Shown in pieces: positions 4,749 through 63,867 of a DNA stretch of 64,000 nucleotides (within the stretch, counting starts at the first letter, position 1; every line of letters starts with the position of its first letter). The stretch lies in the sequence record PX880100.1; one strand, 5' to 3'. The notes below the pieces were generated by a model that was not told the DNA's origin, ran no database searches, and was given only the letters and a program-made list of their open reading frames with translations. Made by a program: the position numbers and the translations under genes. The stretch is from a phage.

Positions 4749-5515
4749 TGTCTCTTTCTGATTTAGCTACACAAATTATTAAGGAGCAACTAGATAATGT
4801 TGGGCGTTCCGAGAACAATAAGAATACTGTTGTATATTCTGTTGAAACAGGACTAAAAGATCCTACTAGGGATGGTACTGTTGCTCAAGTATCTTTCAAG
4901 TTCTCAAAACCTGTATCCCAAGATCTCCTTAATGTTAGGACCGCTTCTATTCTAAAAGCTGTATCTTCTAGCTTAGATCTAACAGGAGATTTAGGTGCTC
5001 TAGAGAATTTAATACAAGCAACCGCTGGTAAAAAATCTGCTGTAGGTAAAAAACGTTCCTCTGGTAGAGTTCAAGTAAACTTCGGGGATCCTAGAGACGT
5101 AGAGGATGGATACTCGGGTGCAATAACAGGTGCTTCCGGACGTTTTGTATCAAATAGCAACATGAAGGTTATATTAGAGATAGTTGCTAAAGAGTACTTA
5201 ATAAAGGATATGAAAAAGACAGGAGCGCCATTAAAATTTAGAACTGGCAGATTTGCAAATTCTCTGAAAATTAAGGATGTTATGCTTAGAGATGCAGAGA
5301 CTAGTAAAGGCGCTCCTGAACTAAACGTGACGTATAATTATATGGTACGTCCATATTCTGTATTTAATCCAGCAGTATCTACATATCGAAGATTATCTCT
5401 ACGACCTTACCCAGGCGCTAGAAACCCCCAAAAACTTATTGGTGAGGCTATAGCAAAAGCTGCAAGAGACCTGATTCACTCTAGATATAAAATCAAGGTT
5501 AATCAAGGAACCTAA
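4748..5515 (+). CDS. tail completion / head-tail joining protein (255 aa, putative, T5 p143-like)
   Basis: Gene order (capsid, joining proteins, tail tube); no diagnostic motif. Confidence 0.35.
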   Translation: MSLSDLATQIIKEQLDNVGRSENNKNTVVYSVETGLKDPTRDGTVAQVSFKFSKPVSQDLLNVRTASILKAVSSSLDLTGDLGALENLIQATAGKKSAVGKKRSSGRVQVNFGDPRDVEDGYSGAITGASGRFVSNSNMKVILEIVAKEYLIKDMKKTGAPLKFRTGRFANSLKIKDVMLRDAETSKGAPELNVTYNYMVRPYSVFNPAVSTYRRLSLRPYPGARNPQKLIGEAIAKAARDLIHSRYKIKVNQGT

Positions 5516-12989: not shown

Positions 12990-13018
12990 TTGATAAAATT
13001 TTCTAATACTATTATAAT
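12990..13018 (+). promoter_or_regulatory. sigma70-type promoter upstream of the distal tail protein gene
   Basis: TTGATA (12990-12995), 17-bp spacer, TATAAT (13013-13018); downstream RBS AAAGAGGAGAAATTAACT then ATG at 13046. Confidence 0.6.
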
Positions 13019-29840: not shown

Positions 29841-30614
29841 TTAGTCGTCCAGATCGCTTGCAGCTTCTGTGTCAATACCTTTCTGGGAGCCTGCATTGCT
29901 ATTACCAGATTTGGCATCATCATCTTTATTCTCACGACCCTCCATGAAGGCTTGAATTGCTTCTTTCTGCTCTTCATAGGTAGGAACCGGATAGGTTTGT
30001 TCCAGAGAAGGAACTTTTTCGAACTTAATGATGTCGCCATCTTCATCACACATAGCTTCACCGATCAGATCTACGTCTGCAGCATATTGCTTAGATTCTG
30101 CACTGTTAGGATCTTGCAGCTTAATCTGGAACTGCATAGCAGCAATCTGCTGTACATCATACTCAGTATCGAAACCTTTACCTTTTTTCTCGATAGAAAT
30201 ATCAATATCAAACGGAGTTGCCAGATTCAACTGCTTCATGATAGACTGGATGCCTTTCAGAATCGTAGCCTTGACTTCCATTACTTTCAGTTTGTTATCA
30301 GAACGGTCGATAACAAAAGCGATATAGTTTTTCTTCGGTTTCAGCGGAACACGATTACCATCTTTATCCAGCTCTTTCTCGAAGAAGCCCATCTCATGAA
30401 CCGGATCAGCTTTACCACGAACAAAGCTCTCTTTGTCACGGTTAAAACGGAGACATTCGAAAGGAGCTACATTACCTTCTTTATTAGTCAGCCAATAGAC
30501 ATAACGTGGAAGAACACCAGAAACGATACGAACACGGGTGATACCGTTGTTGAACTTCAGGAATTCGATTTTATCGTTAGAACCGCCAGTAGTTTCGCCC
30601 CAAGACTTAGCCAT
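29841..30614 (-). CDS. putative single-stranded DNA-binding protein (257 aa)
   Basis: Sits in the replication gene cluster; acidic C-terminal tail (DTEAASDLDD) as in phage and bacterial SSBs. No fold-level confirmation. Confidence 0.4.
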   Translation of the reverse strand: MAKSWGETTGGSNDKIEFLKFNNGITRVRIVSGVLPRYVYWLTNKEGNVAPFECLRFNRDKESFVRGKADPVHEMGFFEKELDKDGNRVPLKPKKNYIAFVIDRSDNKLKVMEVKATILKGIQSIMKQLNLATPFDIDISIEKKGKGFDTEYDVQQIAAMQFQIKLQDPNSAESKQYAADVDLIGEAMCDEDGDIIKFEKVPSLEQTYPVPTYEEQKEAIQAFMEGRENKDDDAKSGNSNAGSQKGIDTEAASDLDD

Positions 30615-38022: not shown

Positions 38023-38790
38023 TTATTCAGCAGCCGCAGCTTTTGCATCCAGTTTAGCACGCTTAGCGGCACCATCATAGTCCTTAGCAACCAGACCGCG
38101 ACGAGACAGCATAGATTTAACACCGCGCTCAGACTTACCAGTTTTCTCAGCGATCTCAGCAACAGTCATGTTAACCAGATCCAGACCTTCTAACAGATCT
38201 TCACGAGTTTTAGCACTTGAAGTTTCCTGTACCGGCATAGCAGCGATACGACCTTCACGAAGTAGGCTCAGAGCTTTACCACGGATCTGCTTGATATTAC
38301 GACCGAAGTGAGCAGCGATAGCTTCAATAGTAGCACCAGCAACAACCTGATTAACAAAATCAGTTTCTTCATCCGGAGTGAAGGAACGAACAGCAGCAGC
38401 TTTTTCAGTTGGCTTAACAGAAGCGGTCATTTCCAGACTCAGGATCTTACCCTGTACCTGTTTAGCACCGAACTGACCACCAGCTACAGCAGCAGCGATT
38501 TCAGCATAGGTATACTGACCAGCATGAGCGTTCAGGAAATCAACCAGTTCAGCTTCCTGCTCAGGAGTCCACGGGGATTTCTGCACTTCGTTAGCTTTTT
38601 GTACTTCAAAACCTTCTTTACGCAGTTTAGAGCCAACAGAGCGAGCAGTAACATCTTTGCCAGTTTCAGCAGCCAGTTCAGCAGCAATAGCAGCTACTTG
38701 TTCTTGAGAGATTACAGAAACACCCAGAGCAGTGGCTTTTGCTTTCAGAGACTCGGTTACACCTTCTACGTTCCAGTTCAGTTTAGACAT
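38023..38790 (-). CDS. putative DNA-binding protein with repeated helix-rich modules (255 aa, T5 D5 position)
   Basis: Three to four repeats of a ~30 aa Ala/Lys-rich module (e.g. MTVAEIAEKTGKSERGVKSMLSRRGL); host-optimised codon usage; a related module occurs in ORF 41699-42109. Confidence 0.4.
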   Translation of the reverse strand: MSKLNWNVEGVTESLKAKATALGVSVISQEQVAAIAAELAAETGKDVTARSVGSKLRKEGFEVQKANEVQKSPWTPEQEAELVDFLNAHAGQYTYAEIAAAVAGGQFGAKQVQGKILSLEMTASVKPTEKAAAVRSFTPDEETDFVNQVVAGATIEAIAAHFGRNIKQIRGKALSLLREGRIAAMPVQETSSAKTREDLLEGLDLVNMTVAEIAEKTGKSERGVKSMLSRRGLVAKDYDGAAKRAKLDAKAAAAE

Positions 38791-41364: not shown

Positions 41365-41661
41365 TTATCGGCCTACTGGAGAAGCACGATCTAACTCTGA
41401 TTGGAGGCTAGTCACACGACGGACTTTCTCGACAGGAATAAAACGGAAGCTATCATTAGTACGAGAGAAGACAAGGATTTCATCATCTTTCGCTTTACGG
41501 ATACGTTCGCGTTTAATACGCTCAGCCAGATATTTATCTTGGGCCGGATCAAATTCCATTGTACCCTGAAGGTACGTGGTTCCTTTCTGACGAAGTTTCT
41601 CGTAATGAAGATAAAACTCACCAAATTTTTCGCACTGTGCAATAATTTCAGCTTTAGTCAT
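41365..41661 (-). CDS. hypothetical protein (98 aa)
   Basis: ATG at 41661; followed by a hairpin (AGCCCC/GGGGCT) plus T-run terminator at about 41322-41345. Confidence 0.35.
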   Translation of the reverse strand: MTKAEIIAQCEKFGEFYLHYEKLRQKGTTYLQGTMEFDPAQDKYLAERIKRERIRKAKDDEILVFSRTNDSFRFIPVEKVRRVTSLQSELDRASPVGR

Positions 41662-41698: not shown

Positions 41699-42109
41699 TT
41701 ACTTAGTGATAGCTCGGATTGCTTCTGCCAGATGAGCAGCCGCTTTACCGGTCAGTTTGTCGATAATTGCATCATCCAGAAAATCTGGTGCTAGGCCAGC
41801 ATCAGAGAATGCTGAACGAAGGTCGGCATGAGCTTGGGCTTTGGAAGTACGAGAACCGCCAGAAGCTTTTTCTCCAGTAGATGCGCTAGATTTAGAAGCA
41901 GAGCCAGCAGCTTTCTTGATATACAAACCTGCTTTAGTCAGCTTCATACGAAAACCGTTCGGAGTTACACCATTTTCCTGGGCAATTTCGCTAACAATTT
42001 CCATGCTAACACCCGGACGTTCATCCTCTGGGAATTGCTCCATACGAGCAACGTATTCGGAAGACATTTTTTCGAACAGTTCATCAGTCCACTGAGTTGG
42101 AGTAGTCAT
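41699..42109 (-). CDS. putative DNA-binding protein (136 aa) sharing a module with ORF 38023-38790
   Basis: Segments VSMEIVSEIAQENGVTPNGFRMKLTKAGL and DAIIDKLTGKAAAHLAEAIRAI resemble the repeated module of the 255 aa protein; first gene after the promoter at 42167-42195. Confidence 0.35.
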   Translation of the reverse strand: MTTPTQWTDELFEKMSSEYVARMEQFPEDERPGVSMEIVSEIAQENGVTPNGFRMKLTKAGLYIKKAAGSASKSSASTGEKASGGSRTSKAQAHADLRSAFSDAGLAPDFLDDAIIDKLTGKAAAHLAEAIRAITK

Positions 42110-59177: not shown

Positions 59178-59446
59178 TGTCTATTCTTTTATCTGCTTTA
59201 GAAGCAAAACAAAATACTATTGCTGTTATTAAACAGGAAGTACTTAATCTAGAGTCACTTATTGCCGTAGAGATTGATAAAGCAATCAAAGAAAAAGAAT
59301 TTAACTGCCATATTCAGGGATTAACTGAATATTCAGAAAACGCCAGAAACAGCGTTATGCAACGACTCACTAAACTAGGCTATGTCGTAGAAGCTAAGTA
59401 TGAGCAGCGTGAAGGTTTTTGGCTTGAAATTGACTGGAGCAAATAA
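59177..59446 (+). CDS. hypothetical protein (89 aa)
   Basis: TAATG-coupled to the flanking genes. Confidence 0.3.
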   Translation: MSILLSALEAKQNTIAVIKQEVLNLESLIAVEIDKAIKEKEFNCHIQGLTEYSENARNSVMQRLTKLGYVVEAKYEQREGFWLEIDWSK

Positions 59447-59922
59447 TGTCGGTTTTCCACATTTACACAGATGGTGCTTGTAAGTCTAACCCAGGTCCAG
59501 GTGCTTGGGGTTTTATTGTCTATGATGATAACGACGATCGTTTAGGTTCTAAATCTGGTTATAATCCTAAAACTACAAATAATGAGATGGAACTCACAGC
59601 TATTGTAGAAGCTCTACGTTGGTCTGTTAAAAAAGATAATAGACCAATTGCTATCTATACTGACTCTGCTTATTGCAAAAATGGCATGGAAAGTTGGATG
59701 TTTTCTTGGCAAAAGAAAGGCTGGAAGAAAGCAGATGGTGAAGTTCCTCTTAATCTAGAACTTTGGCAGGAAGCATTTAAATTAACACAGCAGTATATCA
59801 ACTTTCATAATACTAATCCTACCTTTATTAAGGTTAAAGGGCATTCTGGTATTAGTGGTAATGAAGCTGTAGATGCATTGTGTAATACAGTTATTACCGA
59901 GCAAGAACTTGCCGATATGTAA
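59446..59922 (+). CDS. rnhA: ribonuclease H (158 aa)
   Basis: RNase HI blocks: IYTDGACKSNPGPGAWGF, TNNEMELTAIVEAL, IYTDSAY, VKGHSGISGNEAVDAL. Confidence 0.85.
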   Translation: MSVFHIYTDGACKSNPGPGAWGFIVYDDNDDRLGSKSGYNPKTTNNEMELTAIVEALRWSVKKDNRPIAIYTDSAYCKNGMESWMFSWQKKGWKKADGEVPLNLELWQEAFKLTQQYINFHNTNPTFIKVKGHSGISGNEAVDALCNTVITEQELADM

Positions 59923-59943
59923 TAAATAAATTAAAAATTTTCT

Positions 59944-59971
59944 TGCTTAAAGCCCTCTAATTTAGTATAAT
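59944..59971 (+). promoter_or_regulatory. sigma70-type promoter
   Basis: TTGCTT, 16-bp spacer, TATAAT; RBS GTGAGGAGGG before ATG 59999. Confidence 0.5.
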
Positions 59972-59998
59972 ATTCGTATTGAAAGTGAGGAGGGCTTT

Positions 59999-60277
59999 AT
60001 GCGAATTTATAACTCAAATTCACTAGGATTTAAACCATTGAGAAAACGTGCACAATCACCTCGTCAAATAAGAAAGGCTAATATTGGTGAGCCAGAAACA
60101 CGTCTTCCACCCCCTCCAGAACAACGTTTAGTTTATCTGGACGAAGAATTAGCTAAACGCGAAAGAAAAGCTCAAGAAGAGATTGAGCGTAAGAAAATGT
60201 GTACTGCTCCGGCGTATAATAAAGGAGCGTATCAATATGTCTCAGATGCTGAACAAGCTAAGATGGTTGGTAGATAA
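59999..60277 (+). CDS. hypothetical protein (92 aa)
   Basis: Monocistronic unit with its own promoter and RBS. Confidence 0.35.
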   Translation: MRIYNSNSLGFKPLRKRAQSPRQIRKANIGEPETRLPPPPEQRLVYLDEELAKRERKAQEEIERKKMCTAPAYNKGAYQYVSDAEQAKMVGR

Positions 60278-60293
60278 TTTTTAAAAAATTCAT

Positions 60294-60322
60294 TTGCTAA
60301 ACGCTTCAAATTCTCGTATAAT
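60294..60322 (+). promoter_or_regulatory. sigma70-type promoter with conserved leader
   Basis: TTGCTA, 17-bp spacer, TATAAT, leader TTCATAAATTGATAAACAAAAAGGAAAACAAATA before ATG 60361. Confidence 0.6.
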
Positions 60323-60360
60323 ATACTTCATAAATTGATAAACAAAAAGGAAAACAAATA

Positions 60361-60876
60361 ATGGCTAAGCAGAAAAACGCAAAAACTCAAGCAGCTCCGG
60401 CAGTTAAAACTTTCCCGCAGACTGAGGCTAATCGCAAAGCTCGTCTGGAACGTCACCTGCGTAAGCATCCTACCGATGCTCAGGCTGCTCAAGCACTGAA
60501 TAATCCGGCTCCGATTCGTCAGAAGCCTAAAGCTAAAAATGCCACCCGTAAATCCTACAAAATGGTTATGTATGTAGAAAATTACGGACACAAATCTGTC
60601 CCAGTTTCCCTGAGCTTCAACGCTGGGGCTGAATTGTTCTCTCGTAATGGTATGTCTATGAAAGACTATGAGAAGGCAGTTAACCAGAAACGTAAACCAA
60701 CAGCAGATGTATTGCGTGATACTCGTGGACAGTTTGGTTCTGTTAAGCCAAATATCTTTGGCGTAGAGTATAGTAAAGATAATGTTCGTGCTCTGTGTTA
60801 CGGTGTAGGCATTAAGTTCACGGGTGATTCTGCTCGTAAATCTGCTAAACCAGCTCGCAAGCGTAAAGCGAAGTAA
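60361..60876 (+). CDS. highly basic protein (171 aa) with host-optimised codon usage
   Basis: Lys/Arg-rich termini (AKQKNAKTQAAPAVK...; ...SARKSAKPARKRKAK); codon usage dominated by cgt/ctg/aaa. Confidence 0.45.
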   Translation: MAKQKNAKTQAAPAVKTFPQTEANRKARLERHLRKHPTDAQAAQALNNPAPIRQKPKAKNATRKSYKMVMYVENYGHKSVPVSLSFNAGAELFSRNGMSMKDYEKAVNQKRKPTADVLRDTRGQFGSVKPNIFGVEYSKDNVRALCYGVGIKFTGDSARKSAKPARKRKAK

Positions 60877-60939
60877 TAGATAAATAGGGGCAGAAGCCCC
60901 TACAATCTACTAATTCTCTAACTAATCAAGGATATTTTT

Positions 60940-61155
60940 ATGTTCTCTAAGAAACCACGCTCCGTTACTGAAATCGTTGCTTCCTTTACCACTATCACTG
61001 ATGAGCTTCAAGCTCGTATTGAGGCTGATCAAAAAATTGCTGCGGATATTCAGAAACAGCAGGAAGAACTCGCTTTAAAGTTGGCTGAAACCAACAAGAG
61101 TGAAAAATCTGCCCAAACTATTATGGAAAATATCCTTAAACTGCTGGGCAAGTGA
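60940..61155 (+). CDS. hypothetical protein (71 aa)
   Basis: Small helical ORF; followed by the hairpin at 61164-61187. Confidence 0.3.
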   Translation: MFSKKPRSVTEIVASFTTITDELQARIEADQKIAADIQKQQEELALKLAETNKSEKSAQTIMENILKLLGK

Positions 61156-61163
61156 TTTAAATC

Positions 61164-61187
61164 AGGGGGCGAAAGCCCCTCTTATTT
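61164..61187 (+). terminator. terminator-like hairpin
   Basis: Stem GGGGC/GCCCC with GAAA loop followed by CTTATTT. Confidence 0.45.
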
Positions 61188-61196
61188 GGAGAAACT

Positions 61197-61433
61197 ATGC
61201 GTAATTTTGTAGCAAAGAATGATTTTAACCGTGCTAGCACTCATAAGTCCGCTAGAGATTATACACGACTTTCTAGTCATGAGGTAATGGATACCTGTTA
61301 TGAAGAGCTGGAAGGTAGCTGGAATGAGTGGCCCGACTTCTCTATGGAAGAGAACTGGGATGTCAGTGAGGATATGCTTCCTGGTTTTAAAGACCCCAAG
61401 AAGTGGGAGTCTATTAAAGAGACAGCTCTTTAA
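61197..61433 (+). CDS. hypothetical protein (78 aa)
   Basis: ATG 61197 with GGAGAAA upstream. Confidence 0.3.
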   Translation: MRNFVAKNDFNRASTHKSARDYTRLSSHEVMDTCYEELEGSWNEWPDFSMEENWDVSEDMLPGFKDPKKWESIKETAL

Positions 61434-61461
61434 TAGTTTTCTACACAATAAAGGATAAGTT

Positions 61462-62163
61462 ATGAAAGTAAAACCATTTGGTATGCTAGATATTGAATCT
61501 CTGGGAACTCCAGGAGATTGTGGTACTACTCATATCGCAATGCCTTCTTTCGCTTTTGTGGCTATGCATGGAATTGATAAAGACCCTGATCTAATATTTG
61601 TTACTTTGGATGTACAAGATCAGCTTAATTCTGGTGCCAAAGTTACAGCATCTACTCTAGCATTCTGGATGGATCAAGCTAAAAATAGCCCGTCTGCTAT
61701 CCACATTATGGAAGCTATGAAGGAACGTAATCCAAAACTGATTGCCTTCCAAAATGGTAAACATCATTGCACTAATAAACTCGGCTCTAACTATGCTGCC
61801 TACTCTATGGCTAAAAATATTATGGAGTTGGCTTTAGGCGAAAATGCTTTGTATTATGGCAACGGTCCAGAGTTTGATATGACTATCTACTCTGCAAACA
61901 CGTTCCATGCTGGAACCAATGAAGAGGTAGTTCCGTGGAAATTCTGGAATTTGGGTAATGTTCGATCTCTTCGTAACCTCTGGATGCAAGCTGGATACAG
62001 TTATAAAGCTCTAGAGACCGAAGGTATTAGCTGGGCAATAGCTAAAATGGAGAAGATGGACACCATTCGTTATGGGATCTATCCGGTTAAGCACGACCCA
62101 GCATTTGATGCCTTAGTTGAAAGCTATTGTGTTGCAGCTATGATCGAAAAAATGAAAATTTGA
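61462..62163 (+). CDS. putative DEDDh-type 3'-5' exonuclease (233 aa)
   Basis: N-terminal Exo I-like MLDIESLGT and C-terminal Exo III-like H-x4-D (VKHDPAFDALVESY); the middle motif was not identified. Confidence 0.4.
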   Translation: MKVKPFGMLDIESLGTPGDCGTTHIAMPSFAFVAMHGIDKDPDLIFVTLDVQDQLNSGAKVTASTLAFWMDQAKNSPSAIHIMEAMKERNPKLIAFQNGKHHCTNKLGSNYAAYSMAKNIMELALGENALYYGNGPEFDMTIYSANTFHAGTNEEVVPWKFWNLGNVRSLRNLWMQAGYSYKALETEGISWAIAKMEKMDTIRYGIYPVKHDPAFDALVESYCVAAMIEKMKI

Positions 62164-62164
62164 T

Positions 62165-62193
62165 TTGCTTCCGGCCCCAAAATTCTGTATAAT
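62165..62193 (+). promoter_or_regulatory. sigma70-type promoter with conserved leader
   Basis: TTGCTT, 17-bp spacer, extended -10 TGTATAAT, leader TTCATAAATTTGAGAAAACAACAAAAGGAAAACAAAT before ATG 62234. Confidence 0.6.
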
Positions 62194-62233
62194 ATATTCA
62201 TAAATTTGAGAAAACAACAAAAGGAAAACAAAT

Positions 62234-62416
62234 ATGCCAGTATCTAAAAATGTTCGTAAAAATGGTAAGAAAGCTACTCGTAATCTGGGTATCCGTCGTA
62301 TGGCTGAACGTCAATCAGGTGTCCAGAAAATCTTTGATCTGCTAAATCGTGCTAATCCTAAAATTGATAACAGTAAAGATACTGTTCTGCGTACCTTACT
62401 GGCAATGGGTCTGTAA
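62234..62416 (+). CDS. small basic protein (60 aa)
   Basis: Lys/Arg-rich N-terminus; host-optimised codons; own promoter. Confidence 0.35.
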   Translation: MPVSKNVRKNGKKATRNLGIRRMAERQSGVQKIFDLLNRANPKIDNSKDTVLRTLLAMGL

Positions 62417-62468
62417 TAGACCAACTTTAAACAAATTCAAATCTTAAACTTCATATAAGGAAGAAACA

Positions 62469-63107
62469 ATGACCACTCGTATTTCTAAAACTCGTGCTCT
62501 GGCAACCATCAAATCTCTGGAAGCTAAAATCCGTAAAGCTACTGAACAACAGCTTCTGATCGCTGTTGGTGAAGGTAAGGATAAAAACCAGGTTGTAGTT
62601 GGCGCTGCAATCGAAGTAGCTGATCTGTCTACTCGTATTAAGACTGATTTCCAGTCTCTGCTGGATATGATGTCCCAGCGCGATCGTATCAAAGCTGCTC
62701 TGATTAAAAGCAATGCGGAAACAATCGTTGAGATTGGCTCTCGTAAGATGACTGTTGCGGAAGCAATTGAAGCTAAGCGTTCTATGGAACTTAAAGCTCA
62801 ACTGCTGGCTAACATGCGTAAGCAGTTCCATGCCGCTACAGTTAAGTTTAATGCGCAGAAAGCACAGTTTGATGCTAAATATGAGCGTTTGCAGGATAGC
62901 ATGGCTACCCGCGATAAGAAAACTTCCGAAGATGAAGTTAAAATGCAGCTCAACCTGCTGGAACTCAAGAATACTCCATTCTTGATTGATCCGCTGGAAC
63001 TGGAGAAGCTGATTAAGCAGCATGACGAGGAATACCAGGACTTTGCAACAAATGTTGACTTTGTTCTGTCCGAGTCTAACGCCTCTACCTTCATTGAAGT
63101 AGAGTAA
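62469..63107 (+). CDS. hypothetical alpha-helical protein (212 aa) with host-optimised codon usage
   Basis: RBS AAGGAAGAAAC before ATG 62469; helix-rich sequence; cgt/ctg-dominated codons. Confidence 0.45.
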   Translation: MTTRISKTRALATIKSLEAKIRKATEQQLLIAVGEGKDKNQVVVGAAIEVADLSTRIKTDFQSLLDMMSQRDRIKAALIKSNAETIVEIGSRKMTVAEAIEAKRSMELKAQLLANMRKQFHAATVKFNAQKAQFDAKYERLQDSMATRDKKTSEDEVKMQLNLLELKNTPFLIDPLELEKLIKQHDEEYQDFATNVDFVLSESNASTFIEVE

Positions 63108-63490
63108 TAATTTAAAAGCTAGTAAATCGGTAGACGAAAGCCCAAGCATCTTACCTCGCAGCAGCGGTTGAAATACGAGGTTAAATAAGACCGCTGACCA
63201 TACTATAAAGTATAATCTATTGGAGATTATGTTTATTACACCAGCCTTTTAAGCTGACACGTAAGAACAAAGCGTCGTTGATATTACCGACACAACTTCA
63301 AAGATCAACATTTAAGTATGAAAGCTGAAAAGTTTAAAGAACTCAAACTTCTAAACTTCTAAAGCTAAAAGATGCAAAGTATTCGTTGATGATTCAAACC
63401 CTAGATCAAAGGTACATGGCTCATAAGATATGGCCTGTGGCGCCTCTAGGCTGTTTATCGGTTTACTAGTTTCACAATTTAAAAATGTAT

Positions 63491-63519
63491 TTGCTAATTT
63501 ATTAAGTTATCTGTATAAT
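63491..63519 (+). promoter_or_regulatory. sigma70-type promoter
   Basis: TTGCTA, 17-bp spacer, extended -10 TGTATAAT; RBS-like GAGG before ATG 63550. Confidence 0.6.
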
Positions 63520-63549: not shown

Positions 63550-63867
63550 ATGACTTTTCATATTTTGATTGATGATGTGCGTAATCTTCACGGAATGGAC
63601 ATTATCATTCGAACCCCAGAAGCCGCTGTAGAGTTTCTGAATAAAACTGATACCACCGGCCATTTCGTTTATATGGATAATGACTTGGCTGTAGATGGTA
63701 TGGAAGGTTATCAAATTCTTCGTTTACTCTTAGAATTTGGGCAGAGACCAAAGAAAGTGGTACTAGTAACCTCGAACCCAGTAGCTAAGCAAAATATGCG
63801 TAATGATTTGCTTGACTTAGGGTATAAAGAAAATCCCAATCGTGTTGAATATGATTGGCAGGAGTAA
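63550..63867 (+). CDS. hypothetical protein (105 aa), possible receiver (CheY-like) fold
   Basis: Spacing of ILIDDV (acidic pair), FVYMDNDLAVDGMEGYQIL (candidate phospho-acceptor Asp) and KVVLVTSNP (Thr/Ser) mimics a response-regulator receiver domain; no output domain. Confidence 0.3.
   Translation: MTFHILIDDVRNLHGMDIIIRTPEAAVEFLNKTDTTGHFVYMDNDLAVDGMEGYQILRLLLEFGQRPKKVVLVTSNPVAKQNMRNDLLDLGYKENPNRVEYDWQE

Follow-up and report, generated by a model that had tools for sequence, protein, structure and literature searches.

Two strongly expressed early units in a T5-like phage

What does a phage make in such quantity, and to what end, from three small genes that combine host-preferred codons with sigma-70 promoters? 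The question is raised by positions 60361 to 63107 of a 64,000-nucleotide stretch of phage DNA (record PX880100.1; this whole stretch is called the window below). The initial annotation, made from the letters alone, had seen there a cluster of small basic proteins, each behind its own promoter, and had likened the first product to histone-like proteins. We find that the region is part of a T5-type early region and holds two strongly expressed units read by the host sigma-70 RNA polymerase. In the first unit, promoter PH207 and an unstructured A-rich leader precede the gene T5.089, which is followed by a 3' hairpin. In the second, another T5 promoter with a near-identical leader is followed by T5.086, T5.085 and a structured RNA of about 355 nucleotides (nt). 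The whole account, including nucleic-acid binding by T5.089 and a T5.085-RNA particle, appears rather probable to us.

Sequence comparison places the window in a T5-like phage. The 3.7 kb around the flagged genes shares 97-98% DNA identity with Tequintavirus (AKFV33, PK7, oldekolle; 97.8-98% for AKFV33 and PK7), and 448 phage records match. The three open reading frames (ORFs) lie on the + strand with the boundaries first assigned to them and correspond, in annotated relatives and in the T5 RefSeq record, to T5.089 (171 amino acids, aa), T5.086 (60 aa) and T5.085 (212 aa). They are located in the early region, with the RNase H gene on one side and the genes preceding the tRNA cluster on the other. 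The features of the two units are as follows (MFE, minimum free energy; pI, isoelectric point).

60294 to 60322, + strand: sigma-70 early promoter TTGCTA-17-TATAAT, T5 PH207 (exact pattern match; 'promoter P-H 207' of the T5 RefSeq record)
60323 to 60360, + strand: unstructured A-rich leader and ribosome-binding region of the 171-aa gene (CATAAATTGATAAACAAAAAGGAAAACAAATA), MFE 0 kcal/mol
60361 to 60876, + strand: T5.089 homologue, 171 aa, DUF7022 / phrog_4516 (Pfam, PHROG)
60884 to 60903, + strand: GC-rich hairpin after the 171-aa gene (-17.5 kcal/mol, z = -4.3), likely the 3' end or terminator of a monocistronic transcript
62165 to 62193, + strand: sigma-70 early promoter TTGCTT-17-TATAAT of the T5.086-T5.085(-RNA) unit (exact match; annotated in T5 and AKFV33)
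62234 to 62416, + strand: T5.086 homologue, 60 aa, pI 11.65, phrog_5252 (PHROG)
62469 to 63107, + strand: T5.085 homologue, 212 aa, pI 6.8, helical, predicted DIP1984-like fold; second cistron with no promoter of its own
63116 to 63472, + strand: structured RNA, about 355 nt, not annotated in the T5 RefSeq record (conservation, fold z, covariation)
63491 to 63519, + strand: promoter of the next gene, T5.084, which sets the downstream limit of the RNA

With at most one mismatch, the pattern TTGCTN-17-TATAAT occurs at 18 sites in the window, against a chance expectation of 3.7. The promoter before the 171-aa gene is, letter for letter, PH207 itself: the intergenic stretch 60278-60360, from upstream of the -35 element to the ATG, is identical to T5 at 83/83 positions, there is no difference between the 60294 promoter and PH207, and 'promoter P-H 207' of the T5 RefSeq record sits immediately upstream of T5.089. 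The T5 early promoters are among the strongest known in E. coli; the strengths of PH207, PN25 and PD/E20 were reportedly compared by Gentz and Bujard and by Deuschle et al. in the 1980s, and PH207 is said to be among the strongest E. coli promoters. The 62165 promoter resembles PH207, PN25 and PD/E20 in its TTGCTW hexamer, 17 bp spacer, TATAAT, A-rich block near -43 and +1 'ATAAATT'.

A conserved leader had also been reported at these genes. It is real, and it is the known downstream region of T5 promoters. Alignment of 16 promoters of the window showed the A-rich block near -43 and a conserved +1 'ATAAATT' downstream region, matching the published AKFV33 consensus of TTGCTW, a 17-18 bp spacer, TATAAT(A), an A-rich block near -43 and TAAATT near +1. 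The leaders of the 171-aa and 60-aa genes share a near-identical ribosome-binding region, ACAA(C)AAAAGGAAAACAAATA(A)TG. The initiation regions of both genes have an MFE of 0 and no predicted structure; for the 171-aa gene leader, 200/200 shuffled sequences fold at least as well.

The claim of an individual promoter for each gene is correct for the 171-aa and 60-aa genes and fails for the 212-aa gene, for which none was found in 62417-62468. By pattern scan and alignment, the 52 nt between the 60-aa and 212-aa genes contain a ribosome-binding site and no promoter. Therefore, the 212-aa gene is the second cistron of the unit and shares the promoter of the 60-aa gene.

Codon usage and RNA levels

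Abundantly expressed phage genes are the codon-adapted ones. We computed the codon adaptation index (CAI) with the Sharp-Li E. coli weights, entered by hand, over the approximately 67 ORFs of the window. The host-preferred codons noted by the initial annotation were found in all three genes, which stand well above the window median of about 0.26.

171-aa gene: CAI 0.494, about 6th of about 67 ORFs; CGT for 12/14 Arg, CTG for 5/7 Leu
60-aa gene: CAI 0.444, about 8th of about 67 ORFs; CGT for 7/7 Arg, CTG for 5/7 Leu
212-aa gene: CAI 0.566, about 3rd of about 67 ORFs; CGT for 9/11 Arg, CTG for 15/21 Leu

Only a 255-aa gene on the - strand (38023-38790; 0.70) and the major capsid protein gene (0.67) rank above the 212-aa gene.

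The very high expression predicted from these features was borne out at the RNA level in a close relative, Bas33, whose 212-aa protein is 96% identical to that of the window. The values come from the portion considered here of a 2026 RNA-seq study (PMC13250531), which gives mean per-gene transcripts per million (TPM) at 20 min after infection for 75 tabulated genes. In that table the 212-aa gene (bas33_0075) is 4th of 75 with 7711 TPM, the 171-aa gene (bas33_0071) 6th with 7168 TPM and the 60-aa gene (bas33_0074) 12th with 3202 TPM, the first place being held by the 255-aa gene (bas33_0040) with about 19,800 TPM (PMC13250531). Further phage genes reach at most about 3150 TPM in the portion of the table covered, most pre-early genes lying outside that portion. 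Across the 41 genes that could be mapped by length and position, CAI and Bas33 TPM are correlated (Spearman 0.55, p = 2e-4). T5.089 would thus be made in large amounts, as its strong promoter, its codon adaptation and the top-tier RNA of its counterpart in this relative together indicate. Immediately downstream, the Bas33 RNA falls about 70-fold, from about 7170 TPM for the 171-aa gene to about 97 TPM for the next gene in the same table, which fits the hairpin 60884-60903 as the end of the transcript. As the Bas33 values are per gene only, the RNA element after T5.085 lies outside this expression evidence.

Three other early genes, all on the - strand, are likewise strongly codon-adapted, very highly transcribed in Bas33, or both: a 136-aa gene (41699-42109; CAI 0.55, about 9,300 TPM in Bas33), a 257-aa gene (29841-30614; CAI 0.55, about 4,460 TPM) and a 98-aa gene (41365-41661; CAI 0.38, about 7,300 TPM). 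A promoter is not sufficient for such levels, as is seen upstream of T5.089.

59943 to 59971, + strand: promoter of a T5.090-like 92-aa gene (59999-60277), a perfect TTGCTT-17-TATAAT

Despite this perfect promoter, the T5.090-like gene is not codon-adapted (CAI 0.20), and bas33_0069, its likely homologue by position and length only, has about 60 TPM in the tabulated data, approximately 100-fold under its neighbour. The promoter consensus alone is therefore no predictor of the RNA level.

T5.089, the natural product of PH207

The protein that PH207 naturally serves is uncharacterised. T5.089 matches Pfam PF22887 (DUF7022) over its full length (E = 1.8e-76, 256 bits against a cut-off of 27) and phrog_4516 with E = 2e-100; DUF7022 and PHROG 4516 are both families of unknown function. 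The protein has a mass of 19 kDa, a pI of 10.6, 38 Lys plus Arg and 12 Asp plus Glu residues, and its N and C termini are both strongly basic, just as the Lys/Arg-rich tails seen by the initial annotation would have it. The description as small basic proteins extends to the 60-aa product (pI 11.65) and breaks down for the 212-aa one (pI 6.8, 33 Lys plus Arg and 33 Asp plus Glu residues). The three genes do not form one class, since the 212-aa protein is neutral, helical, DIP1984-like and coupled to a structured RNA downstream.

The AlphaFold2 (AF2) model of T5.089 is mostly disordered (predicted local distance difference test, pLDDT, 66; predicted template modelling score, pTM, 0.24). Alignment shows two conserved modules, an N-terminal one at approximately residues 18-60 (TEANRKARLERHLRKHPxDxQA) and a C-terminal one at approximately 120-155 (FGSVKPNIFGVEYSRxNVRALCYGVGIKFTG), and between them an insertion that is missing in many relatives. 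Close full-length homologues were found in T5-like phages only. An exhaustive profile search with the N-terminal module alone gave 132 cluster representatives; these proteins are small (60-170 aa) and basic, their C-termini are unrelated to one another, and those tested all belong to DUF7022 or to PHROG families labelled 'unknown'. Wherever the context is visible, the genes for RNase H, DUF7022, DUF7230 and an exonuclease follow one another in this order.

In a published CRISPRi-ART screen, T5.089 is among the 17 'Fit' genes of 162 T5 genes and is listed as of entirely unknown function; by this knock-down, T5.089 adds to the fitness of the phage. As a strong phage promoter, PH207 is in wide use and has served biotechnology for decades. 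In the phage it drives a basic protein that scored as important in a genome-wide knock-down, so that T5.089 offers a clear starting point in the search for a missing step of T5 infection.

Judging from its composition, T5.089 is most likely a nucleic-acid-binding protein, with DNA or RNA as its target. It would act stoichiometrically on nucleic acid, through an N-terminal helical hairpin and the Lys/Arg-rich tails. The reading first given to it, that of a histone-like or nucleoid-associated protein that coats phage DNA or aids in host-DNA shutdown, is a possibility that we consider doubtful. T5.089 does share the trait of nucleoid-associated proteins of being abundant, small and basic, with 19 kDa, a pI of 10.6, Lys/Arg-rich termini and, in the tabulated Bas33 data, top-tier RNA that supports the predicted abundance. 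It has a fitness effect in the CRISPRi-ART screen, and its place in the early replication region, with RNase H and exonuclease genes as neighbours, is conserved. Nevertheless, neither T5.089 nor its family profile resembles HU/IHF, H-NS, Fis or any other DNA-binding family in Pfam, NCBIfam or the PDB sequences, and the sole weak motif likeness that it has is to an RNA-binding protein. Moreover, T5 already possesses the DNA-binding protein D5, and the breakdown of host DNA is a function of the pre-early gene A1.

D5 is an abundant early double-stranded-DNA-binding protein of T5 whose DNA binding is established, and we take the 255-aa gene at 38023-38790, like bas33_0040, to be D5 from its size (about 29 kDa) and position. 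This presumed D5 is like T5.089 an early gene with a high CAI and high RNA, and D5 is also 'Fit' in CRISPRi-ART; the two proteins differ in being unrelated in sequence.

The motif likeness just mentioned concerns ribosomal protein uS15. The N-terminal module could be a uS15-like RNA-binding helical hairpin, with rRNA, ribosomes or another structured RNA as its target, a reading that we hold to be quite unlikely. When a profile of 111 family members was compared with the PDB sequences, 6/8 hits were uS15 (from archaea, chloroplasts and eukaryotes) in the same register, with E = 0.6-1.6, and Pfam Ribosomal_S15 matched two remote members under its cut-off (E = 0.009-0.016). The pattern HxxxHxxD is present in 96/126 family representatives, and L-x2-H-x3-H-x2-D, a short motif only, is in register with S15 helices 2-3. 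The near-invariant H32 and D39 of T5.089 align with H41 and D48 of S15, which we take here to be rRNA-contacting residues. Against this, there were zero significant hits, the match spans only about 25 residues, the hhalign probability was 9% (P = 0.0036 in a single comparison, with S15 sequences entered by hand) and a profile built from T5 members only gave no PDB match. Homology to uS15, being not significant in PDB, Pfam and hhalign comparisons and lost with the T5-only profile, is kept as a lead only.

A conserved structured RNA downstream of T5.085

We then consider the ORF-free stretch 63108-63490 (383 bp) that follows T5.085. In 151 records its identity is 99% or higher. Compared with Epseptimavirus, this spacer is 95-96% identical while the flanking genes are 78-90% identical, and distant Demerecviridae retain a spacer of 381-428 bp though their 212-aa protein is only 40-58% identical. 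Covariation across these and more distant copies identifies 63116-63472 as a structured RNA, for which a transcript is predicted. Its parts are listed below.

63116 to 63134, + strand: 5' arm of closing helix P1, pairing with 63454-63472
63454 to 63472, + strand: 3' arm of closing helix P1, pairing with 63116-63134
63148 to 63196, + strand: pseudoknot region, with helices A and B and the long-range AUCUUA helix
63148 to 63153 with 63424 to 63429, + strand: long-range helix AUCUUA with UAAGAU (covariation)
63154 to 63158 with 63176 to 63180, + strand: helix A, CCUCG with CGAGG (4 covarying versions)
63162 to 63167 with 63191 to 63196, + strand: helix B, CAGCGG with CCGCUG (8 covarying versions)
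63300 to 63379, + strand: central A-rich domain with AAAG motifs (motif count, periodicity)
63418 to 63435, + strand: hairpin with the 12-nt loop UCAUAAGAUAUG, 10/12 loop positions invariant, stem covarying

The analysis combined an nhmmer profile with our own pairing analysis. In a 13-sequence alignment, 96.0% of the cells are paired, compared to 74.6% in shuffled alignments and 36-48% in slid controls, and 24/33 pairs are altered on both sides. The covariation score is 0.659 against 0.224 for shuffled alignments (0/500 as high) and at most 0.171 for slid controls. The fold z-score of the element is -4.73 on the + strand and -2.68 on the - strand. Helices A and B form an H-type pseudoknot. 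The AUCUUA:UAAGAU helix shows a joint change from A-U to G-C in 5/13 sequences, and the stem of the UCAUAAGAUAUG hairpin exists in the versions GGC/GCC, AGU/ACU, AGC/GCU, GAC/GUC and UGG/CCA. P1 comprises 15-19 bp and was seen in 7 distinct sequence versions; read as the + strand, every one of them includes 2-5 G.U pairs. The motifs AUCUUACCUC, GAGGUUAAA, UCAUAAGAUAU and CUAGGCUG are invariant or nearly so across the RNA alignments, while the sequence between them has diverged.

The central domain contains 7 AAAG motifs against 1.1 expected (p < 0.001), and other copies have up to about nine. In the window they are spaced by 21, 8, 7, 25, 7 and 8 nt, mostly about 7 nt or multiples thereof; the periodicity of about 7 nt is also present in Lysinibacillus and in other distant phage and bacterial copies.

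The element extends far beyond T5. A sequence profile found the RNA 3' of a T5.085-family gene, on the same strand, at 71/80 viral loci and 73/80 bacterial genome loci, and its orientation relative to the gene is constant in 144/144 hits. It is also present in T4-like contigs, where the copy lies within a dense tRNA region; tRNA genes begin directly after the RNA in four phage loci, and several bacterial copies end in an intrinsic terminator. At the level of sequence, the combination of gene and RNA is conserved in T5-like phages, in other large phages and in the chromosomes of Bacillota alike.

Such an element might act as DNA, for instance as a replication origin, a nick site or an insertion resembling a miniature inverted-repeat transposable element (MITE-like, with inverted repeats), and the flanking imperfect inverted repeat of 17-19 bp, the short direct repeats and a GGCGCC site would suit that role. 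We consider it very unlikely, on the following grounds. In all 7 lineages, every non-Watson-Crick position of P1 is a G.U on the + strand, which would be an A.C on the other strand or in DNA and so counts against a function as DNA. The helices stay paired by compensatory changes while their sequences diverge completely. The fixed orientation to the gene and the intrinsic terminators of the bacterial copies likewise argue for RNA.

No known RNA class was recognised. Rfam 15, whose families include RNase P, tmRNA, GOLLD, ROOL, OLE and group I introns, gave no match to the window element at E <= 10 and none at E <= 1 in 10 viral, 2 bacterial and 1 T4-like loci; the T5 RefSeq record has no feature annotated at this position, and a text search of the literature for RNA motifs returned nothing relevant. 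A transfer-messenger RNA (tmRNA) or tRNA-like RNA was rejected, as ARAGORN finds neither. An RNase P-like RNA was rejected as well: no RNase P covariance model matched at E <= 10 in a 396-nt search, and the structural context is different. The element resembles E. coli M1 RNA in its length, P1-like end pairing and tRNA-gene neighbourhood, and the best local match to rnpB (M1 nt 261-281; UCAUAAGG...GGCC) covers 17/21 nt, which is not significant (11/300 shuffles as high). It differs in that UCAUAAGAUAUG is a hairpin loop in the element, whereas M1 stretch 261-281 is a joining region, and no RNase P-type P4 or conserved-region (CR-I to CR-V) motifs were recognised in it by eye.

GOLLD and ROOL are large structured phage RNAs that occur near tRNA genes. 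The element is like them in exceeding 300 nt, in being highly structured and pseudoknotted and in occurring in phages and bacteria, often beside tRNA genes; it matched neither covariance model, is smaller than both and is strictly coupled to one upstream protein gene. TRAP, at the trp leader, and CsrA, on CsrB, are oligomeric proteins that bind arrays of short RNA repeats, and an array of short repeats (AAAG, about 7 nt) by the gene of an abundant and probably oligomeric protein may be analogous. T5.085 and its RNA are unrelated to these systems in protein fold, in motif and in the period of the repeats.

T5.085 and a putative protein-RNA particle

Only 8 nt separate the T5.085 stop codon from P1. 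No promoter was found in them by eye or by pattern and consensus scans, and no terminator was found at the junction by consensus scan and folding, which is why we propose that the RNA would be transcribed from the 62165 promoter; it is probably co-transcribed with T5.085.

At E <= 1e-3, T5.085 has 241 homologues, spread over many phages and the chromosomes of Bacillota. Its AF2 model (pLDDT 88.5) is a helical bundle with small beta elements and has DIP1984 and generic helical hairpins for structural neighbours, those from viruses being all uncharacterised. The model shows T5.085 to have the fold of DIP1984 of Corynebacterium diphtheriae (PDB 3KDQ). The two proteins share this predicted three-dimensional fold; T5.085 is about 60 residues longer, and they are 13-14% identical. 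Comparison of the T5.085 family with Pfam DUF6847, which we take to be the family of DIP1984, gave a best E of 0.19 for 5/44 members, below the gathering score; the family profile reached E = 0.17 with 3kdq, and nothing relevant was found in NCBIfam. The accompanying T5.086 has homologues in close T5 relatives only, all at 83% identity or more, the named ones being Escherichia and Salmonella T5-like phages, and apart from phrog_5252 it matched no family or solved structure. Both T5.086 and T5.085 are 'Not Fit' in the CRISPRi-ART screen.

We propose that an abundant T5.085 oligomer may bind its own downstream RNA, with the AAAG array and its 7-nt spacing as the likely binding site, and that the resulting protein-RNA particle would be dispensable on the laboratory host. 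In phages it would be made at very high levels early in infection, beside tRNA and RNA-repair genes. RNA-repair-type neighbours of the module include cREC_REC and YqeY-like genes, and an RNA ligase and a kinase in T4-like phages; since such genes and tRNA genes so often adjoin it, the module may have a part in translation, or in tRNA-linked or other RNA-level conflicts. A wider proposal joins these elements: the T5.085 family and its RNA would constitute an undescribed, ancient protein-RNA particle, an oligomer on an AAAG array, in large phages (T5-like, T4-like and others) and Bacillota, and T5.089 may be a uS15-like binder of RNA rather than of DNA. We put this combined proposal forward tentatively, at somewhat less than an even chance.

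Several points weigh against the overall account. Co-location is the sole link between T5.085 and the RNA, and the central domain could fold as a long imperfect hairpin instead of a single-stranded binding array. To our knowledge DIP1984 is a protein without known function, and the fold match hence explains no mechanism. Nucleic-acid binding by T5.089 has the charge of the protein as its sole argument, the structure model being poor. The expression support consists of RNA from the relative Bas33 at a single time point, as per-gene counts in the tabulated portion. In the CRISPRi-ART screen the score of T5.089 is borderline (-2.21, p = 0.0496), and the authors of the screen report inconsistent guides outside the pre-early region. 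The 'Not Fit' calls for T5.085 and T5.086 mean either that the module is dispensable on the laboratory host or that the knock-down of a very abundant mRNA failed.

Dispensability would also be expected if T5.085, with or without the RNA, were an accessory counter-defence or host-takeover factor, a decoy, sponge or inhibitor whose mode of action would account for its abundance and which a defence-poor host does not call for. The family is patchy across T5-like, T4-like, Cronobacter, Acinetobacter and Bacillus phages, and its neighbours include cREC_REC, an RNA ligase, a kinase-like AAA_33 protein, a Macro domain and tRNA arrays, all of which would agree with such a role, as would the 'Not Fit' result on the host of the screen. 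However, stand-alone copies occur in many Bacillota chromosomes, and the two loci inspected contain genes of housekeeping or sporulation type and are not prophages; these chromosomal copies argue for a general cellular function of the T5.085 family. PADLOC gave zero matches for six proteins of the region, and there is no experimental tie to any defence system. We regard a counter-defence role as unlikely.

Public databases offer yet another reading, T5.085 as a tail fibre protein (the label of PHROG 1491 and of many GenBank annotations) and T5.089 as a virion structural protein. In the phiR2-01 proteomics, many non-structural proteins are particle-associated, which would be compatible with these labels; the non-structural D5 is itself 'virion-associated' in those data, pointing to carry-over of abundant proteins. 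Both genes belong to the early region and are served by early sigma-70 promoters. Virion mass spectrometry of AKFV33 listed 4 proteins only, neither T5.085 nor T5.089 among them. T5.085 is all-helical in its model, DIP1984-like and also found in bacterial chromosomes outside prophages. That these labels are right is extremely unlikely. We rejected 'tail fiber' for T5.085, which has an early operon, an early-type RNA level, no elongated beta-rich fibre fold and T4-like copies among early genes, and 'virion structural' for T5.089 on its early gene position and its absence from the AKFV33 virion mass spectrometry.

The flagged observation is largely known biology, with the genes, the promoters and the expression logic already catalogued, and the protein and structured-RNA module appears to be undescribed so far; a literature search of main texts found no mention of T5.085, T5.086, T5.089 or DUF7022. 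Confirmation of the gene-RNA pair would link a structural-genomics 'unknown' fold to a partner that bears on its function, extend the short list of large structured phage and bacterial RNAs by a new class, and displace a widespread 'tail fiber protein' mis-annotation.

Neighbouring genes and other features

An antisense ORF of 232 aa (62451-63149, - strand) spans the whole 212-aa gene, and gene callers based on length could choose it wrongly. We rejected it as an artefact of codon bias, since its CAI is 0.25 with CGT for 0/12 Arg and the + strand ORF is the one with the 241 homologues.

Between T5.089 and T5.088 lies a 71-aa ORF (60940-61155; CAI 0.45, phrog_2380), present in AKFV33 and Epseptimavirus and missing in T5 as well as in the gene table of Bas33. 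It is flanked by similar GC hairpins at 60884-60903 and 61165-61180 (GGGGCAGAAGCCCC, GGGGGCGAAAGCCCC), as if a cassette carrying a terminator of its own had been inserted. The label 'tail length tape-measure protein', given to it in some records, is implausible at 71 aa. The order RNase H, (small ORFs), DUF7022, DUF7230-like, Rv2179c-like 3'-5' exonuclease (59446-62163) is kept in distant metagenomic relatives (L007, L010, L017, L019). For T5.087 (233 aa) the label 'metallopeptidase' is probably wrong, as Pfam and PHROG give an exonuclease.

Downstream of the RNA, T5.084 (63550-63867) contains a cREC_REC 'cyclic-phosphate processing receiver' domain (E = 3.8e-15), so that an RNA-repair-associated domain adjoins the new RNA. 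The gene after T5.084 is annotated in relatives as a cell-wall hydrolase, and this order is kept in three distant relatives. One distant T5-like contig (L019) has, between the cREC_REC and hydrolase genes, a PF21825 'Sequestin' gene (4837-5067) that is not in the window.

Elsewhere in the window, two further promoters presumably look like classic cloned T5 ones: TTGATA...TATAAT followed by ATTAAAGAGGAGAAATTAACTATG at 12990-13018 (+ strand) resembles PD/E20 and the 'RBSII' of pQE/pDS vectors, and the sequence at 43221-43193 (- strand), which includes TATAATAGATTCATAAATTTGAGAGAGGAGTTTAAATATG, is one that we take to resemble PN25.

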